Part shown: one piece after another, positions 18,280 through 59,351 of the stretch | Layout: every line of letters begins with the position of its first letter | Position numbering within the stretch: the stretch's first letter is position 1 | NCBI GenBank assembly: GCA_951406725.2 | Contig: OX597825.1 | Location: forward strand, 69,626,001 to 69,690,000 | DNA from: Octopus vulgaris | Lineage: Eukaryota | Direction of reading: 5' to 3' | DNA: 64,000 nt | Made by a program: the position numbers and the translations under genes | The notes under the pieces: model-generated | What the model saw: only the letters and a program-made list of their open reading frames with translations | The model's database searches: none | Told to the model about the DNA's origin: nothing

Positions 18280-18935
18280 ACGCTAAGTTAATTTATCGAT
18301 CACCTATGGCGAACCTCTAAGTTATTTTATCGATCTCGTTTGGCGAACTGCTAAGTCATTTTATCCATCACGTTTGGCAAACCGCTAAGTTATCTTATCG
18401 ATTTCCTTTGGCGAATCGCTAGTTATTTTATCGATCTTCTTTGGCGAACCTCTAAGTTATTTTACCGTTCTCCCTACGCGAACCGATAGGTTATTTTATC
18501 TATTCACGTTTGGCGAACCACTAAGTTATTTTATTGGTTTCCTTTGGCGAATTTCTAGTTATTTTATCGATCTTCTTTGGCGAGCCTCTAAGTTATTTTA
18601 CCGATCTCCTTTTGCGAATAGCTAAGTTATTTTAACGATCACATTAAGCGAACCGCTATATTATTATATTGAACACCTTTGCCGAACCGCTAATGTTATT
18701 TTATCGATCACGATTTACGAACTGCTAAGTTACTTTATCGATCATGATTGGCGAACATCTAAGTTATTTTATCGATTCAATTGATGAACCACTAAGTTAC
18801 TTCATCGATCACGTTTGGCGAACCGCTAAGATAGTTTATCGATCTCCTTTTGCGAACCGCGAGATTATTTTATCGATCACGTTTGGCAAACCTCTAAGTT
18901 ATTTTATCGAACACGTTTGACGAAGAGCTAAGTTA
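18280..18935. repeat. 34-bp minisatellite, about 19 diverged units
   Basis: Unit approximately TTATTTTATCGATCWCSTTTGGCGAACCGCTAAG, head to tail with no spacers. Confidence 0.92.
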
Positions 18936-19449
18936 TACGATGAGCTTCTACACAGTTTTCCTTTACCAAAGTAACTCACAAAGCATTGACAATTTTGGGA
19001 TTATAATAGATGTCACTTGACTAAATTGTCGATTCTGTATTTTTTTCCATTATAAATATTACTACAGTTTGCTGTGTTCGTTGAACACATTCATATAACC
19101 CTACCCAACGGCATTGTTAAGATATTTTTCAAAGTCTTTTCTTGAAATTCTCACTAAGAATTAGATTTTTTATTCAAGTCATTTTACTCTAAATGTTACA
19201 AAATAATACGGCATCTGTAAATGAATATGTGTGTTTCATAAAAGTGTATAAGAATATCATGAGAAAATAACGGTTAAGAATTCTATAAAGTTCGAATATT
19301 TTCTGTATCCTCTATAAAATAACAAGATCCTAATATTTTCAAACAAGAGAATGAAAAATATAGTAACATCTACGCAGTTGCATCACTTGTAAGGAATCAT
19401 TAGTAAAGGAATTAGGATGAAGCGAATGCTAAAACCAACGCGTAAACTC

Positions 19450-22077: not shown

Positions 22078-22715
22078 AATCAGTATTAAATATGAGTATC
22101 ATTATAATTAGAGTTCAGCAAAAAAATTTGCTTTGCCACATACCGAACTTTTAGAAATAACAGCCAAAGAACTTAGCTATTTCTTCTACTATAAGAAGAA
22201 TCTCCCAGACAACGTATACCCGAAAACAATTCACGTAGGCATAGAGGAAACGATAACGAAAATTCACTCGGCATTTGATTACTTGTGGACGCGTTTCTGA
22301 GATAGATAGATATGGAGATGCTAGAATTACATCTTCATTCTACCATTCTCTTCATCATCACAAAGATTTCAAGATTATAAATTAGAGAGCACCGAAAAAA
22401 TTGAACATACCTATCTGATTCAAGTAACATCAGACAAACTATATCCAACTCCAGTACCAACGAATTCAAAACGTACGAATGACGCTTCTTATTCTCCTTC
22501 ACCCACCAACTGTAGGAATTTGTTACTCGACAACACACGTGGGTAGGTGAAGGAGAATACGAAGCCTCATACGTATGTTTTGAATTCGTTGGTACTGCAG
22601 TTGGATATAGGCCAGGGAAAATAAAGAAATGACACTTGTTCAAGTTGATGCGCAGTGAGATTAAACTCAAAACAGTGTAGTTACGGAGTAAATATCGTGA
22701 TCTAGGAGCCATGTT
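22078..22715 (-). mobile_element. Penelope-like non-coding element with hammerhead motif (family H4) and internal 40-bp inverted repeat
   Basis: Begins at (TA)n and shares accgaa-tttagaaata-cag-caaaga...tagctatt-cttctacta with 31741. IR about 22440-22478 versus 22572-22610. Confidence 0.6.
22283..22363 (-). ncRNA. Type I hammerhead-like motif with long stem II
   Basis: Reverse complement ttgtg-ATGATGA-agaga...tctca-GAAAC-GC-GT-C-cacaa: 5-bp stem I, palindromic ACGCGT stem III, C3>A. Confidence 0.6.
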
Positions 22716-25915: not shown

Positions 25916-26685
25916 AGGCGGTGAGCTGGCAGAACGGTTAGCACGCCGGGCGAAATGCTTAACGGTATTTCGTCTGCCGTTACGTTCTGAGTTCATATTC
26001 CGCCGAGATCGACTTTATCTTTCATCCTTTCAGGGTCGGTAAATTAAGTACCAGTTACGCACTGGGGTAGATATAATCGACTTAATCCGTTTGTCTGTCC
26101 TTGTTTGTCCTCTCTGTGTTTAACCCCTAGTGGGTAGTAAAGAAATGGGTATTTCGTCTGTCGTTACGTTCTGAGTTCAAATTCCGCCGAGATCGACTTT
26201 GCCTTTCAGCCTTTCGGGGTCGGTAAATTAAGTACCAGTTACGCACTGGGGTAGATATAATCGACTTAATCCGTTTGGCTGTCCTTGTTTGTCCTCTCTG
26301 TGTTTAACCCCTAGTGGGTAGTAAAGAAATGGGTATTTCGTCTGTCGTTACGTTCTGAGTTCAAATTCCGCCGAGATCGACTTTGCCTTTCAGCCTTTCG
26401 GGGTCGGTAAATTAAGTACCAGTTACGCACTGGGGTAGATATAATCGACTTAATCCGTTTGGCTGTCCTTGTTTGTCCTCTCTGTGTTTAACCCCTAGTG
26501 GGTAGTAAAGAAATGGGTATTTCGTCTGCCGTTACGTTCTGAGTTCAAATTCCGCCTAGGTCGGCTTTGCCATTCATCCTATTGAGGTCGATAATTTAAG
26601 TACCAGTTACGTCCTGATATCGATGTAATCGACTGCCCCCCCTCCCACAAAAATTTCGGGGCTTGTACCTAGTGTAGAGAAGAAT
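25916..26685 (+). mobile_element. SINE family A with four tandem body units (184-bp period)
   Basis: GTATTTCGTCTG recurs at 25965, 26149, 26333 and 26517; single tRNA head. Confidence 0.93.
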
Positions 26686-30976: not shown

Positions 30977-31366
30977 GCCGCAGGAGTCTGGTGTGTGGTA
31001 AGGAGCTTGATTCCCAAACACATGGTTTCGGGTTCAGTCCCACAGCGTGGCACCTTGTGCAAGTGTTTTCCACTATATCTTCGAGCTGACCAAAGCCTTG
31101 TGAGTGGATTTGGTAGATGGAAATTGAAAGAAGCGCGCGTCTTTGTCTTATTGCTTGTCTCCCACCATCGCTTGACAACTGTTATCCGTGTGTTTATATC
31201 CCAGTAATTCACTGGTTCGGCAAAACAAACCGACTGGATAAGTACCAGGTTTAAAAAAAAAAGCAGCGGTGTTATTTCAGTCAATTAAAAATTCTTTAAT
31301 ACGGTGACCCACCATGGCCGCTCTCTCATGACTGAAACGAAGAAAATATAAAAGTTAAAAGATAAA
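30977..31366 (+). mobile_element. SINE family B, diverged
   Basis: Head, CORE-like segment and tail align with 17533. Confidence 0.8.
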
Positions 31367-31933
31367 ATACTTTATTGAAACATGAGAATAAATAACAAAT
31401 GATTTCAACATATTTTTTCTGTATGCATGTTGAGAAAGAGGGATAATATCAAAGCGCAAGATTTCTTCATAACTGACGTGACATTAAGGAATAAAGGACA
31501 GGCTTATTATACTGAGATAAGAAACCAGTGTGTACTTCTATCCATTTCGTAAATGCTATGTCAGGTTGAGAGATGATCTCACTTTCGCATGTGGAGCACG
31601 TCAGAGTTGTCATTTGGTAATTATGTTAAAACCTGTAGAGATGGAGGTAATATTTTAACAAGTCAAGAATTTTTTGTGGTATGGTATTTCACATTCTGGC
31701 ATTTGTCATTCTCACTACCCCCTCTGTATATATATATATATACTAAGTAATTAAGGGTTTAGCAACGAATTGCCTCACCAACACACCGAATTTAGAAATA
31801 GCAGTCAAAGATATATAGCTATTCCTTCTACTAAAAGGGGGATCTCAGTAAAAACACAGACCTGAAAGGCAAACACAGACAGGTAAGAAAGAAAGAATGA
31901 AATGACGCCAATCCATCATGCAATTTTAAGTTA

Positions 31934-32025
31934 CCTACGGACGTACGTTTCGAGATCAAGTTTTAGGATAGCATAAGAATTAGAAAATTCTACTTTACCC
32001 AAACTTCTTCTCTCATCGGCGCAGG
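31934..32025 (-). ncRNA. Type I hammerhead ribozyme motif (mirror copy)
   Basis: Reverse complement of 32476-32567. Confidence 0.72.
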
Positions 32026-32475
32026 ATACGACAATTATGAATAATTGTATATTAAATTTTGAGATACTAGAATGCATCATCTCAACTCAGTGTCAGAGCG
32101 AGCCAAAGCATGACCAGTACCACGAAATTCAAAGTTTGAATGAAAGTTTGTGTCACCAGCCCCCTTCCACCCGCGTGTAGCCAAGACAAAATGCTGCGGT
32201 CATTCACTGGGATAAAATATGGTTATCAGTAATAATAATAAAAGGTGAAATTAATTAATTAGGGATAATTATCAATTACACCAAGTAGATTTCGGCATGT
32301 AAAAGCCCCATTCGAGGAAAATTTAAGTAATACTAAGAGGGCTGGTGACACAAACTTTCATTCAAACTTTGAATTTCGTGGTACTGGTCATGCTTTGGCT
32401 CGCTCTGACACTGAGTTGAGATGATGCATTCTAGTATCTCAAAATTTAATATACAATTATTCATAATTGTCGTAT

Positions 32476-32567
32476 CCTGCGCCGATGAGAGAAGAAGTTT
32501 GGGTAAAGTAGAATTTTCTAATTCTTATGCTATCCTAAAACTTGATCTCGAAACGTACGTCCGTAGG
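32476..32567 (+). ncRNA. Type I hammerhead ribozyme motif, predicted cleavage after C32561
   Basis: cctgcg-CCGATGA-gaga...tctc-GAAAC-gtac-GTC-cgtagg: 6-bp stem I, long stem II, palindromic ACGTACGT stem III, U4>C. Confidence 0.72.
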
Positions 32568-32858
32568 TAACTTAAAACTGCATGATGGATTGCCGTCATT
32601 TCATTCTTTCTTTCTTACCTGTCTGTGTTTGCCTTTCAGGTGCTGTGTTTTTACTGAGATCCCCCTTTTAGTAGAAGGAATAGCTATATCTCTTTAACTG
32701 CTATTTCTAAATTCGGTGTGTTGGTGAGGCAATTCGTTGCTAAACCCTTAATTACTTAGTATTACTTAAATTTTCCTCGAATGGGGCTTTTACATGCCGA
32801 AATCTACTTGGTGTAATTGATAATTATCCCTAATTAATTAATTTCACCTTTTTATTAT

Positions 32859-32922
<64 letters not shown>

Positions 32923-33166
32923 ACATACATACATATATTTATATATATATATATACATATATATGTATATATATACACACATATATATATATATATGCAT
33001 ATATACATATATATACATATATATAGAAATACATATACATATATATGTATACATTCATATATATATGTGTATATATATATATTATATACATATATATATA
33101 TGCATATATACATATATATACATATATATAGAAATACATATACATATATATGTATACATTCATATA

Positions 33167-33223
<57 letters not shown>

Positions 33224-33679
33224 ATATACATGCATATTATGTATATGTGTGTATGCTTGTGTGTGTGCATCTATGTATGGTATTGAGGAGTTTATTGTGT
33301 AAAACCTCAAGGGTATCTTTCATCTGAATGTGACAGCGTTACATGGTCGTGTGGCGCGTATGTCACTTTTATGTATTTTATTGCAAGAACAATTCATATT
33401 GATCATAGAGGATAAATAAGGAAACACGGTTACATGAAATATGATACAACTCCTCATGGTAAATAGGAATATCAGTGACGCTGTTTGTGAGTTAATATCA
33501 CAGCCATGTAATAACAGTTGATGCCAATGTCTGTTGTTTGGTTCATTGATTGATTTCTTTAGTTCTGCTTTACACCAAAGTGATAGAGGGGACAAGAGTG
33601 TAATGGACGATAGGGAGAGATTTGACATAAGAGGTTCAAGTCAATAGAGGAACGCTGAAATTAAAAAGCAGTGGTCGTT

Positions 33680-43554: not shown

Positions 43555-44812
43555 AATATATATGTATATACATATATACCTATACGTATATGTATATATG
43601 TATATTATATATATATATATAAGTGCACATTTATTTATTATGATATATATATATATATGTGTGTAAGTGTATAATATATATATATATATATACATATATA
43701 TACATACATATGAACAGGTATATATATTTATATACATATATATATATATATAAATATATATATTTATATATATATGTATATATGTATATGTATATATATA
43801 TATGTATATACATGTATACTTATACGTATATGTATATATGTATATTATATATATATAAGTGCATATATATTTATTATAATATATATATATGTGTGTATGT
43901 GAATAATATATATATTGTGTATCTTATTCATCTATATAGTATGCATATGCAAGCACACATACATACATACATACATATATATATATTCATATTGTTGAAT
44001 GCACACATGCACACACACAGACACACACACACGCACGCAAACACTCGTATATATTTATGTACATTTGTTCGAATGTATATGAATAAGGTTCACTAGAGCA
44101 ATTGTTGAATGCATTTCAAATATCTTTAAAAGGCCGGCTTTCTGCAGATAGAAAAATAGTTACAGCTTCTATTTTTCTTTCTTTAGCTATCTGCTTTCAC
44201 AGCTTGCTAAGTATTTCCTGTCTACTATTTCTATATTTCCTTATTGCAAACAAAAGATAAAAACATTATTTTTATGATATTTTATCTTCTACAAATACTT
44301 ACACAGCTCACTGTTATTTTATTTCTGATACGTTCCTTTATATATTTTTTCTCAGTTCGTATTATTTAAAAACGGAGAAAATGTTTTTTCAAGTATTCTG
44401 CATACAATAAAACGTATATCTGCGTTTAATATGCTACAAAGATAAGAGCTACATCTAAACGTATTGACTTTGACACGTTTATGGTTTGAGCTTCGTGACC
44501 AATACCAGATCAGGAGGTTGTTTCATCCTCTTCAAACATCTAGATATTTCTATTCTTTATTGTTGATATAATGAAATAAGTTTGTTTGCATCCATTAAAC
44601 CATCGACCCTTTGTCGTTTAATATACAGATATTTTTCGTTTTTCATTTGCTCTTTTTATTTTCCTCATATCTTCCGTTTATTGTGTATTGTAAGAAATAT
44701 TGCTTTTTCATTATTCTTTAGACAGTAGAATGTAAATGTCGTGAACTTGATTATATATATATATATATACAATCATACATACACGCATGTCACACGTATA
44801 TATATATATATA

Positions 44813-44861
44813 TACTAAGTAATTAAGGGTTTAGCAACGAATTGCCTCACCAACACACCGA
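44813..44861. mobile_element. 49-bp solo terminus of the 31741 element
   Basis: TACTAAGTAATTAAGGGTTTAGCAACGAATTGCCTCACCAACACACCGA is identical to 31741-31789; (TA)n on both sides. Confidence 0.9.
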
Positions 44862-44878
44862 TATATATAAATACATAC

Positions 44879-49250: not shown

Positions 49251-49264
49251 AAAGGAACAAGCTA

Positions 49265-50129
49265 GTAGTGTTTTCTACGTTCTTAGTCTAATGGAAGCAT
49301 AGTGTATCTTGTCTTCGTGTTTTTTTGAAATTAGAATATTAGAATGTTGAGTCAGTTTTAAAGTATATTATTGCTACATTAAAACACCTTCAGAAAGTCG
49401 CGGAAATATTTACACATAATAACATATTCTATTATATCTTGAAAGTTATTAAAGTATGTACTGCGAAGCTAAATAGTAGATTTATAATGTAATATACTTC
49501 ATATAATGTTAACAGACGTAACGCAGTAACCATTAAATCTGTAATTAGAAATAATGGGAGCAACATTATCTATGCTATAATTATGTTACTCTCTACGTAT
49601 GTAATCCTGAAGTCGAGGAAACTTTCCATAATAGAGAGAGAGACAGCATCGTTTATACAATTCGTAAGACAACCAACTCCAGTCAGATAAGCGCTATGGC
49701 GATGGAAGAGTTGCGACATGTGCAGACCGAACCAGTGGGAGCGTCGAATTTCAAGTCAAAAAGCGTTTAAACACTTGATTGGGGAACATCTTATGTCACA
49801 AAGTGATCAGATCAATCGAGTGGAAGTTACAGCTCTATGTCTGGCATCTACGCTTCACACCATACAGATTTGTAGTGGGAATGGACAGTCAGCTGAACAG
49901 TCAAAGAGAAAAGGTCAGAAATGTCATTCACAACGAGGAAGTGAAAGGGGACGGTAATCTACTATGAAAATAGAGCAATCAGCATACATTACATAGTTTG
50001 CTCCAAACCTGCAACAATGTAATTCATTCAAATATCAGGTGAATCTCTATAAAGCAATAACTACAGCTGTTATAGTTGAAAAAGACGTTCTTAATAAGTC
50101 GAGTCAGCAGTAACTTCAAAAGCAATAAT

Positions 50130-50184
<55 letters not shown>

Positions 50185-51768
50185 ATATTTCGACCTGCCG
50201 TATTTCGTCTGCTGTTACGTTCTTAGTTCAAATTCCGCCGAGGTCGATTTTGCCTTTCATCCTTTCGGGGTCGATAAATTAAGTACCAGTTACGCACAGG
50301 GGTCGATGTAATTGATTAATCCGTTTGTCTGCCCTTGTTTGTTCCCTCTTGGTTTAGCCCTCTTGTGGGTAATAAAGAAACATATATATATACATATATC
50401 CCCTCACTATGCAAAAGTTGCATAATTATAATCATAATTATAATTATAAAATTATAAGGTTACCGCTAATGGTTCTTTTAACATACCGAACTACTTAGTA
50501 AAATTATTAATTATTAATTGATTAATTAATTTTACACTTTATTATTATTATCCCCTAACTATATAGAATTGCGTGTGCCAAAATTCCCTCAAATTATATT
50601 GAACTTAACTAGACAATAGCCTTTTGCATTATGTAGTTTTTGAATATATTATGAGCAAACAACTAAGAGGAGGGTCACGGCTGGATCACTTTTGGCTCTA
50701 GCCTTTGGTTGAAAGCAAACCTCATAAACTACTGCATATTATTACTCATGCTTTCTCTGAAGTTACAGTTATTTCTTGTTAACAAACTAACATCTCTGTG
50801 GTCAATCGATTTCCTAGATATAACAGCAATATATATATAAAAAATATTTTTCTACATTAAATAGTTTTCGATAAATCATCTGAATAAAAGATGAGAGAAC
50901 AACAGGATCACTTTTTATTGTATGCTTGCTACAATCAGAGATGTATGCAACAAAGCAGTAGTGTTTTCTACGTTCTTAGTCTAATGGAAGCATAGTGTAT
51001 CTTGTCTTCGTGTTTTTTTGAAATTAGCATATTAAATGTTGAGTCAATATTATTGCTACATTAAAACACCTTCAGAAAGTCAAATATAATTCTAAATCTT
51101 GAAAGTTATTATATGTACTACTGAACTAATGTCCATTTCATATAATGTTAACAGACGTAACGCAGTAACCATTAAATCTGTAATTAGAAATAATGGGAGC
51201 AACATTATCTATGCTATAATTATGTTACTCTCTACGTATGTAATCCTGAAGTCGAGGAAACTTTCCATAATAAAGAGAGAGACAGCATCGTTTATACAAT
51301 TCGTAAGACAACCAACTCCAGTCAGATAAGCGCTATGGCGATGGAAGAGTTGCGACATGTGCAGACCGAACCAGTGGGAGCGTCGAATTTCAAGTCAAAA
51401 AGCGTTTAAACACTTGATTGGGGAACATCTTATGTCACAAAGTGATCAGATCAATCGAGTGGAAGTTACAGCTCTATGTCTGGCATCTACGCTTCACACC
51501 ATACAGATTTGTAGTGGGAATGGACAGTCAGCTGAACAGTCAAAGAGAAAAGGTCAGAAATGTCATTCACAACGAGGAAGTGAAAGGGGACGGTAATCTA
51601 CTATGAAAATAGAGCAATCAGCATACATTACATAGTTTGCTCCAAACCTGCAACAATGTAATTCATTCAAATATCAGGTGAATCTCTATAAAGCAATAAC
51701 TACAGCTGTTATAGTTGAAAAAGACGTTCTTAATAAGTCGAGTCAGCAGTAACTTCAAAAGCAATAAT

Positions 51769-51823
<55 letters not shown>

Positions 51824-52592
51824 ATATTTCGACCTGCCGTATTTCGTCTGCTGTTACGTTCTTAGTTCAAATTCCGCCGAGGTCGATTTTGCCTTTCATC
51901 CTTTCGGGGTCGATAAATTAAGTACCAGTTACGCACAGGGGTCGATGTAATTGATTAATCCGTTTGTCTGCCCTTGTTTGTTCCCTCTTGGTTTAGCCCC
52001 CTTGTGGGTAATAAAGAAACATATATATATACATATATCCCCTCACTATGCAAAAATTGCATAATTATAATCATAATTATAATTATAAAATTATAAGGTT
52101 ACCGCTAATGGTTCTTTTAACATACCGAACTACTTAGTAAAATTATTAATTATTAATTGATTAATTAATTTTACACTTTATTATTATTATCCCCTAACTA
52201 TATAGAATTGCGTGTGCCAAAATTCCCTCAAATTATATTGAACTTAACTAGACAATAGCCTTTTGCATTATGTAGTTTTTGAATATATTATGAGCAAACA
52301 ACTAAGAGGAGGGTCACGGCTGGATCACTTTTGGCTCTAGCCTTTGGTTGAAAGCAAACCTCATAAACTACTGCATATTATTACTCATGCTTTCTCTGAA
52401 GTTACATTATTTCTTGTTAACAAAGTAACATCGATGTGGTCAATCGATTTCCTAGATATAACAGCAATATATATATAAAAAATATTTTTCTACATTAAAT
52501 AGTTTTCGATAAATCATCTGAATAAAAGATGAGAGAACAACAGGATCACTTTTTATTGTATGCTTGCTAAATCAGAGATGTATGCAACGAAG
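49265..52592. repeat. Direct tandem duplication, two ~1.65-kb units, each with a SINE A fragment
   Basis: Units start at about 49265 and 50957; core offset 1639 (identical ORF translations at 49718/51357 and 50076/51715). Confidence 0.95.
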
Positions 52593-53522
52593 CAGCAGCA
52601 GCAACAACGACAACAACATATCAAATATAAAAATTAAATCAATACTGAACTCTTCCATTATTGTTTAGAAATGGAATATTTCTTTCGCCGTTTGAAATAT
52701 AACTTGTTTTATAGTAATTGCTAACATAGACTCTCAGTTGTTTCTTTATATCATACAATTTCTTCTTTAAATTATTATATTTCTTTAAATTATTATAGCC
52801 TCGGGTTAATCCATACATAGTGGATAAAACTGGGTTGAGAAATACTGTATAGAAAGATCTGGGTGGATTGTGGCCGTATTTCAAAGTAAAAGCCATGTCA
52901 TGCACTGATATATGTTGATTTTGACTACGAATTGAAACGGAGTTTGAACATTCATAATGAACAAGCCAAAACAGAAGTGAGACATTGTTGCAGCAAGTGA
53001 TCAGCACCTGAACCGACTCTCAGGGCTCAAATGTCATTTGAGATCCCAGGCTTGGAAAGAGCACGTTCAGATGCAGGGAGACGTGAAGCTCTGCAAGGAA
53101 CTGACAATCACCATGCATGTATGCATGTATGTATGTATGTATGTACGTATGCAGGTATGTATGTATCTATGTATGTATGTATGTGTGTGTATGTATGTAT
53201 TATGTATGTATGTGTGTGTGTATGTATGTATGTATGTATGTATGCATATATGTATGTATGCGTGTATGTATGTATTATGTATGTATGTATGTATGTATCT
53301 AACTTCTGCTGAATTCTAGATCTGAAATTTTCAGCGGTTGTAAGCTAATGTCTAAATTCCTGTTGACGAATTAGAAAGGAGCTCTCTCGCCAGATTCAAT
53401 AGGTGTACCATTATCTTTTAAGCCTTATAATTTACGGCCTACGGGAAATAATTTGTATGCCCCCTTTGCTTGTCTCTGATTTTTTTTATCGTTTGCCGGT
53501 TTTTCACACTCCATCTGTGTTC

Positions 53523-58340: not shown

Positions 58341-59351
58341 CATATACAGAAGTGGGTGTGAGTGTGTACATGTGTATGTGTGTGTGTGTTGTAGTTTGTG
58401 TGTGCGTCTGTTAGCGCGCCAGTGCCTGGTTTGTGTTATTTGGATACCATATACGCTACTACCACGACTGTAATTGCTAAGCTAAGACTACAGAATCTAA
58501 CAATCTAAGATCCCAAGATAATTCCAATACAGAGATATTAAACGCGGGAATTCTTACATCAAACTCTCCTTTCATGTGGCTGAGCAATGAAACAAATAAA
58601 ATGTCCATTTGCATCGTTCAAAAATCAGAAGAAAAAAAAGACATTACGAAAAATACAGGAACTGATTCAATATTGTATATTTTGCATCATGCTGCTGTTT
58701 TATTTTGGCGATAAATATTAATGTGTTTATTGCTGGCTTTCATAATCTAAAACACAGTATTTACTCACAATAAAAGCGTTATTCTTATTGTGGTCTTGTT
58801 TTCTTTTGCAAGGTTATATTGACTTAGGAGGCATTGCATGTACTTTACTGGTTTGTTCTGTTATTTCCTACAGTCATCGGAGAAATCGACCAACGGTCAT
58901 GACTTGTGTAGATCCTGGTTATTAATTTATCGGTCGTTCTTTTCGTATCACTTAGTCTATGAGATGAAAATAAAGCACCATCGACTGCCAATGGGCGAAA
59001 TACATAGAAAATGACTCACACACATACACATGCATACATACACAAACCTATGTACATATATATATCACGTGATTACGTGACCGACCAGACCATCAGATGT
59101 TGCTACACATCGCTGGTCAATGCGTTCGCATTGTTTGTTCGAAACCGCTTAGAAAGAGTGGTGAAATCGGATCTGCGAGCGTCGTGAGCTTTGTGTTTTC
59201 TCTCTAACGCCCGGTCTGGGAAACAATAAGGGTTTCGCAACAAGTTGCTTGACCACATACCGAAAATTTTAGAAATAGCAGTCAAAACTACTGTTTCTTT
59301 TTCTTCCGAAATAGTAGTCATTTGACTGCCATTTCTAAATATATATATATT

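Follow-up and report, generated by a model that had tools for sequence, protein, structure and literature searches.

A retrozyme-like hammerhead repeat in Octopus vulgaris with the integration footprint of a Penelope-like enzyme

The palindrome at positions 31740..32863 of the window, the 64,000-nt stretch of Octopus vulgaris DNA analysed here, represents a single insertion of a non-coding 591-nt unit, present as two back-to-back arms. The repeat bears the integration footprint of a Penelope-like enzyme. With moderate confidence, we read it as a young animal non-LTR retrozyme, written into (TA)n by a borrowed Penelope-type reverse transcriptase (RT)/GIY-YIG enzyme through two-end priming, probably from a circular monomer. 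Two-end priming driven by a Penelope-like element (PLE) appears very likely to us and, if it is granted, a circular or repeatedly read monomer is a fairly likely template.

Architecture of the palindrome and its repeat family

An earlier note on this DNA had described a nested palindrome of the form A'-spacer-B'-A-B between (TA)n tracts, and self-comparison bears out both pairs of blocks. A' (31740-32166) and A (32335-32762) are identical in 422 of 428 alignment columns, differing by 5 mismatches and 1 gap, and B' (32230-32337) and B (32755-32863) are identical in 108 of 109. The target microsatellite can be read on both sides, at 31727..31741 on the left and 32864..33240 on the right. By self-comparison, unit mapping and end scoring, arm 1 (31740..32337, minus strand) covers unit positions 1-598, that is, B'-spacer-A', and has its 3' end at a short site, S1 (unit position 8). 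Arm 2 (32335..32863, plus strand) covers unit positions 172-591 and then 1-108, that is, A-B, and has its 3' end at a long site, S2; the proposed circularly permuted or tandem unit is thus recovered. The spacer (32167..32229, minus strand) corresponds to unit positions 109-171 and is copied in one arm only, as judged from self-comparison and unit mapping. The 5' ends of both arms meet at the inversion junction (32335..32337) with a 3-nt overlap, within the range of 0-11 nt seen at nine junctions of the family. End scoring places the tail segment at 32763..32863 on the plus strand, within block B. The longest stop-to-stop frame in the unit is 67 codons, in keeping with the non-coding character that had been claimed. 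ARAGORN found no tRNA in the 64-kb window, which argues against a tRNA-derived head.

Near-perfect palindromes next to microsatellites are a recognised assembly hazard, and a fold-back artefact was considered here. The two arms, however, differ at six places and are not mirror images, their start and end points in the unit being different, and they share their end rule with 26-28 other loci on many chromosomes. On this internal and comparative evidence, we consider an artefact barely credible.

We searched the genome (2.8 Gb in 227 contigs) for further copies. Exact matches to the ribozyme 24-mer number 424 genome-wide (221 forward, 203 reverse), against 0 for a reversed-pattern control. On contig C1, 40 of these matches fall in 20 loci, and extrapolation from these loci suggests ~200 ribozyme-bearing insertions in the genome. 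The family is young, as the earlier note proposed: the best-scored places are 97-100% identical (98-100% for the top 40) and copies are ~99% alike. Merging the fetched loci yielded 52 distinct insertions, about a quarter of the loci, drawn from the best BLAST hits, with one query favouring tailed copies. All 52 are built from the one unit, head to tail, with a period of 588-591 nt and nothing between, and the longest arm contains ~10.4 units. The unit has a GC content of 37% and is dispersed as dimers to multimers in (TA)n. No open reading frame (ORF) lies between units among the fetched insertions, consistent with the non-autonomous element that the note had envisaged. Family insertions at G000:C7:29194700-29197450 and C1:16395200 are hosted by (GATA)n, not (TA)n, so the (TA)n target rule is not strict. 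Parts of the unit are also covered by assembled contigs of four runs (X1, X5 and X9, which we guess to be RNA, and X15, of unstated kind); these contain no splice joint or defined end, and such contigs cannot reveal starts, ends, strand or circles.

Two older relatives of the family are ~78% and ~70% alike. A profile of the 3' region, shared among the three families, matches the 64-kb window eight times, three of them within the palindrome, and the five matches outside it suggest that the superfamily is very abundant. An aged copy of the ~70% relative (3' domain) with a decayed hammerhead lies at 22087-22480 (minus strand); in its family, which likewise occurs as tandem and inverted copies, stem I reads UUUGUG/CACAAG and stem III ACGCGU. 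Short fragments of the 3' end or tail of the same superfamily lie at 44812-44862 and 59225-59306 (minus strand) and at 50422-50549 and 52061-52188 (plus strand). A ~1.7-kb tandem duplication with 95.6% identity (49259-52598) doubles one tail fragment. The window further contains tandem repeats at 25964-26634 and 18281-18936, with periods of ~184 and 136 nt, respectively, the former belonging to a repeat that is dispersed across the window.

Hammerhead motif and predicted RNA fold

The type I hammerhead motif lies where the earlier note had located it. In copy 2 (32476..32567, plus strand), stem I is formed by CCTGCG (32476-32481) and CGTAGG (32562-32567), the core CCGATGA occupies 32482-32488, stem II is GAGA/TCTC, and GAAAC-GTAC-GTC leads to a predicted cut after C32561. 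Stem I thus comprises 6 bp and stem II 4 bp plus a long extension, a 53-nt insert, while stem III is the palindrome ACGUACGU, beside the GUC site. The core, CCGAUGA, has C at position 4. Copy 1 (31934..32025, minus strand) matches copy 2 in every letter, and its cut is predicted after position 31940 of that strand. A descriptor requiring the core boxes, stems I and II and a near-palindromic stem III matched the 64-kb window twice, both times in the palindrome; as a control, 20 Markov-resampled windows gave three matches. The note had spoken of a fold on each strand. The motif is indeed present on both strands, but as two inverted copies of one sense-strand ribozyme, and the descriptor finds no hammerhead on the antisense strand of the 591-nt unit. 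We therefore rejected a viroid- or HDV-like replicon with ribozymes in both polarities. Rfam, which the note had proposed as a check, gave no hammerhead match in 31000-33600 at E<=10: none of the 49 matches is a ribozyme. Perhaps the 53-nt insert in stem II accounts for this miss.

Of 110 units, 103 retain an intact hammerhead core and stems, and stems I and II show the covariation on which the note had staked its ribozyme, with double changes in both stems across three families (25 sequences, 22 distinct). All cells of stem I are paired (100%), with double changes in three of six pairs, and 88.6% of those of stem II, with double changes in three of four pairs. Pairing of the two stems together is 95.5% and falls to 22-48% once the pairs are slid; none of 500 shuffles reached the observed pairing. 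The number of double-change pairs was reached by 75 of 500 shuffles, the covariation resting on three families and hence on few independent events. The young and sister families differ in stem II, as GAGA/UCUC versus GGAA/UUCC and GAAA/UUUC, and in the oldest family this stem is displaced by a bulge.

Stem III has a predicted energy of +2.4 kcal/mol as a hairpin and -9.8 kcal/mol as a duplex between two copies. These values fit the dimer design of metazoan hammerheads, in which stem III is stable only between two copies (PMC4209133). In the minimum-free-energy structure of the monomer ribozyme, the core pairs with stem III. From the energies and the covariation, self-cleavage of the unit is predicted; eight of nine Xenopus retrozyme dimers gave no cleavage (10.64898/2026.07.22.740005). 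We also considered an intron, with AG/GTAAC right after stem I at 32567 and a pyrimidine tract to 32639, and rejected it, as no joint was seen, one contig is unspliced and the sister family has GGTGAC at that place.

Cut to cut, the predicted monomer is 591 nt long. Folded as a circle, it has a predicted energy of -148.3 kcal/mol, against -124.2 +/- 8.7 kcal/mol for shuffles (z -2.8; 0 of 40 shuffles as stable), and the predicted circle re-forms stem I across its junction. The antisense circle folds weakly (-103 versus -148 kcal/mol). Towards the end of the unit, a structured 3' domain (32655..32861, plus strand) is conserved in families 70-90% alike. It is 96% paired across 17 sequences, with mostly one-sided pair changes; only four pairs show double changes, a number reached by 291 of 500 shuffles. 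In the predicted fold, S1 lies within a loop and S2 directly behind the tail hairpin. On this model, the 3' domain is a candidate signal for the reverse transcriptase.

End sites, candidate enzymes and template

The 3' ends of the arms cluster at two sites ~100 nt apart. Among 85 scored ends, 45 lie at S1 (unit 8-14), with one more halted at position 4 by a substitution, and 36 lie at S2 (unit 64-126, mostly 100-121); a TA tract flanks 80 of the 85. Both ends are in view in 33 of the 34 two-armed insertions, the remaining one being cut off by the fetched stretch. A script scored these 33 as 27 S1/S2, 1 S1/S1, 1 S2/S2 and 4 with another end. Inspection of the flanks showed that the S1/S1 case enters the tail after a deletion and that a substitution conceals S1 in one of the cases with another end, which brings S1/S2 to 29 of 33. 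One-armed insertions end at S1 in 14 cases and at S2 in 4. The tail-favouring query may inflate the share of S2, but would not alone pair S2 with S1. The outer ends are fixed at S1 and S2, while the inversion points vary between insertions. Owing to this clustering, we interpret block B as the tail between two start sites, which is present in one arm only.

Partial tandems, an inverted 5'-truncated copy and a tail at one end only agree with the Penelope-like behaviour that the note had claimed. Its template-switch origin holds in part: copying from a tandem or circular RNA probably stands, but the inversion is better explained by two cDNAs primed from both target ends at two fixed RNA sites than by a chance switch. 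In the portions of the Penelope and retrozyme literature available to us, strict pairing of the S1/S2 type was not found quantified or shown for retrozymes.

Enzymes that could act in this way are present in the genome. GIY-YIG matches are abundant (148 among the best 150 of 6136 candidates), and autonomous PLEs with RT and GIY-YIG frames occur. One family, encoding a 775-amino-acid (aa) RT+GIY-YIG protein, is intact, all 131 scored places showing 100% identity to the query after rounding. It has a period of 4271 (4.27 kb), also forms tandem arrays, and carries in its pLTR a hammerhead whose core is CCGA and whose stem III is a palindrome centred on GUAC. Its copies end in (TA)n, ~683 or ~720 nt past the ORF, with a tail of ~40 nt where that of the unit is ~100 nt. 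In all ten two-armed insertions fetched, a short end is paired with a long end. It is because this intact PLE obeys the same end rule that we ascribe the footprint of the retrozyme to a PLE enzyme.

Linkage to a Penelope RT/GIY-YIG ORF, which the note had suggested looking for, was not found, physically or in sequence, in the four families examined. The partner search covered 52 GIY-YIG places, mostly within 1.5 kb of the match, so that longer pLTRs could escape it; neither the unit nor the 3'-domain profile matched the pLTRs of the 781-aa, 775-aa, second 775-aa and CCHH-less endonuclease families. Inspected by eye, the end fold of the 775-aa pLTR contains no obvious counterpart of the unit's 3' domain. 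Profile matches near PLE ORFs (L054, L095, L100, L186, L293 and L269) were rejected as partners, as they lie outside the PLE's own ends or upstream and represent separate TA-tract insertions. The unit is not itself an autonomous EN+ PLE, since neither it nor its arrays contain an RT/GIY-YIG ORF. It could be the pLTR of an autonomous PLE still to be found, the insertions then being 5'-truncated copies: hammerhead, tail and inversions are all pLTR features (PMC4209133, PMC8557442), and the four families examined are not all the PLEs of the genome. Units directly adjoin up to ~10 times with no ORF, however, and no more than 4 of the 150 loci of the three related retrozyme families have a PLE protein match, in each case as a separate neighbour; we regard this origin as very improbable.

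Several elements in the fetched loci are notable in their own right. L213 (G000:C8:53366000-53375900) represents a very young PLE family of period 4271 with a pLTR hammerhead, in which the 775-aa RT/GIY-YIG frame is overlapped, in a different phase, by an upstream frame of ~430 aa; such an arrangement is uncommon, PLEs being described as single-ORF. We take its CxxC linker to be Neptune-type. A second young PLE family, at L046 (G000:C16:20835000-20843000), has a period of 4787, a 781-aa RT/GIY-YIG frame, an upstream 359-codon frame without a Pfam family, and a pLTR in which TGACGTC and ATTGG boxes recur and a scan detected no hammerhead. At L272 (G000:C8:24418220-24421507), a 665-codon frame with only a weak RVT_1 match has at its end a GIY-YIG-like domain that lacks the CCHH motif; it may be a PLE of the Hydra clade. 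A 447-codon frame beside an older-family copy (L111), presumably a LINE-type RT judging by its motifs, was set aside as unrelated to the retrozyme. At least ten further distinct type I hammerheads with palindromic stem III, several as inverted pairs, lie in the fetched flanks (L024, L025, L028, L029, L049, L087, L095, L097, L098, L102, L107, L112, L117 and L130), which indicates a genome rich in such elements.

We analysed the template through variants in an alignment of 190 unit pieces, 68 of them full. Microsatellite and homopolymer runs (positions 90-111, 177-180 and 496-504) and gaps were masked before counting, and three degraded pieces and the reference-private sites 292 and 561 were dropped. 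Subfamily haplotypes of up to ~10 linked sites are uniform within insertions. Pieces of the same arm differ by 0.0030 substitutions per site (108 pairs), those of opposite arms by 0.0040 (78 pairs) and those of different insertions by 0.0135 (7212 pairs), and in 93 of 98 cases all units of an insertion share the allele at a family site. The 44 multi-piece insertions carry 13 private variants found in all covering units (5 of them in both arms), 4 found in a subset and 64 singletons, where private refers to the 52 sampled insertions and an unsampled parent array may share them. Nine cases are non-uniform, five at family sites and four among private variants; for example, the arms of the insertion at C8:109.42 Mb differ at site 424, and the longest array contains T/C blocks at site 514. 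Such cases point to the use of two templates, to a multimeric one or to subsequent conversion. The 5' ends of the arms do not pile up at the predicted cut site (unit 396-402), where just 1 of 86 falls, and this implies a template that was continuous across the cut site. New variants fixed in every unit imply a bottleneck of one unit followed by multi-unit copying, as on a circle. Judged from sequence, the uniformity within insertions probably reflects repeated copying of one monomer, which would be circular.

Two other routes to such arrays have to be weighed. Monomers or solo pLTRs could insert singly and the arrays grow later in DNA, by unequal crossing-over or slippage, with the palindrome as a secondary rearrangement. 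Growth of this kind has been proposed for vertebrate retrozymes (10.64898/2026.07.22.740005), and the block-like variants of the longest array would agree with it. It is improbable here, given that many insertions have more than one unit in both arms, that variants are star-like, singletons far outnumbering subsets, that inversion points vary while outer ends do not, and that the intact 775-aa PLE has the same geometry. The second route keeps two-end priming by a PLE but takes as template an uncleaved linear multimer from a uniform parent array, the hammerhead being a passenger and no circle being formed. The anole PLE still inserts normally when its hammerhead is mutated, and its main in vitro substrate is unprocessed RNA (PMC11167929); the autonomous 4.27-kb family, too, lies in tandem arrays. 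Counted from the 3' end, variants confined to a subset of units are partly in register (416A at C12:8.72 Mb, 514T/C at C9:34.22 Mb), and the lack of 5' ends at the cut site fits a linear multimer equally. Multi-site haplotypes and private variants are nevertheless fixed in all units of 3-7-piece arrays, which calls for a one-unit bottleneck and re-expansion that a purely linear route does not supply, and the hammerhead stems are kept by compensatory changes across families 70-80% alike. We judge the linear multimer rather unlikely.

In the favoured reading, hammerheads in a tandem transcript of two units would pair through their palindromic stem III and cut as a dimer, and the freed 591-nt monomer would be circularised. 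The PLE protein, probably as a dimer, would bind the structured 3' domain, cut both (TA)n strands and start reverse transcription at S1 on one end and at S2 on the other. Each cDNA would extend for 0.1 to 10 units before the two are joined at their growing ends via microhomology of 0-11 nt, producing the nested palindrome. The anole PLE cuts and extends both DNA strands, two internal RT start sites define its tail, and its protein is predicted to be a dimer (PMC11167929). Its in vitro insertion does not need hammerhead cleavage and its start sites are alike on both strands (PMC11167929), which counts against the favoured reading. The window copy is predicted to be a dead end and is probably not a source, owing to its one ribozyme per arm and to the fold-back of its transcript over 428 bp.

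A more specific version, which we offer tentatively and at somewhat less than an even chance, is that a PLE RT dimer takes one circular RNA, primes both (TA)n ends at S1/S2 and rolls round the circle, with the 3' domain recruiting the enzyme. If so, every two-armed insertion would be a one-step record of rolling-circle 'twin priming'. The 3' RNA domain, conserved across retrozymes 70-99% alike, would then be the signal by which the parasite recruits the enzyme, without being related in sequence to the helper pLTR.

Comparison with known systems

Chlamys non-autonomous PLEs (MRC1 of Chlamydomonas) are likewise non-coding and form multi-copy head-to-tail insertions with PLE structure (PMC8557442). 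They differ in generally being without canonical hammerheads, in preferring (CA)n or (C)n, and in resembling their autonomous partners at the 3' end (PMC8557442); for the octopus unit, no such match was found to the four families. In layout, the unit parallels EN+ PLEs (Neptune-type linker; Poseidon_Ac), which show partial tandems with an inverted 5'-truncated copy, a one-ended tail, two start sites and AT-rich or (TA)n targets, and in which a hammerhead whose stem III is palindromic likewise precedes the end sites (PMC4209133, PMC8557442, PMC11167929). A tail at one end only is noted as frequent in PLEs in a figure legend of PMC8557442. EN+ PLEs differ from the unit in the RT/GIY-YIG ORF between their pLTRs, which the unit does not have, and in a tail of 30-40 rather than ~100 nt.

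Retrozymes are tandem type I hammerhead repeats expressed as circles (PMC7229834) and are related to pLTRs (10.64898/2026.07.22.740005). Read from its letters, the unit appears to belong with the animal non-LTR retrozymes: it has a hammerhead per unit, tandem low-GC repeats, no coding capacity, and PLEs in the same genome. Those retrozymes, too, are non-coding repeats in tandem, each unit bearing a type I hammerhead; their GC content is below 45%, and they are dispersed as dimers to multimers and co-occur with PLEs (PMC7229834; 10.64898/2026.07.22.740005). At 591 nt, the unit is longer than the invertebrate retrozymes of 170-400 nt (Cervera & de la Pena 2020, PMC7229834) and within the 51-972 bp range of the 2026 retrozyme survey (Li, Clavereau & Pollet, 10.64898/2026.07.22.740005). 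The portions of PMC7229834 and 10.64898/2026.07.22.740005 available to us do not mention, for animal non-LTR retrozymes, a two-armed inverted layout, two fixed end sites or targeting of (TA)n; in the text of PMC7229834, the words 'inverted' and 'microsatellite' each occur zero times.

The note's undescribed retrozyme-like family therefore needs narrowing, in that the class is already described (PMC7229834; 10.64898/2026.07.22.740005) and the family itself may be new, as judged against the literature. PMC8557442 covers octopus, Penelope and the hammerhead ribozyme, and the 591-nt family is not described in the portions available. The origin of tandem and inverted PLE insertions has been named an open question (PMC8557442), as has the mobilisation of animal retrozymes (10.64898/2026.07.22.740005). 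To both, the octopus family brings a small defined RNA with two mapped start sites and a near-strict short/long pairing that it has in common with an intact PLE. Several young candidate enzymes reside in the same genome, which makes the question accessible to in vitro testing along the lines of PMC11167929. As a class, the element joins systems already known; its value lies in a clean footprint that makes an open mechanistic question testable.
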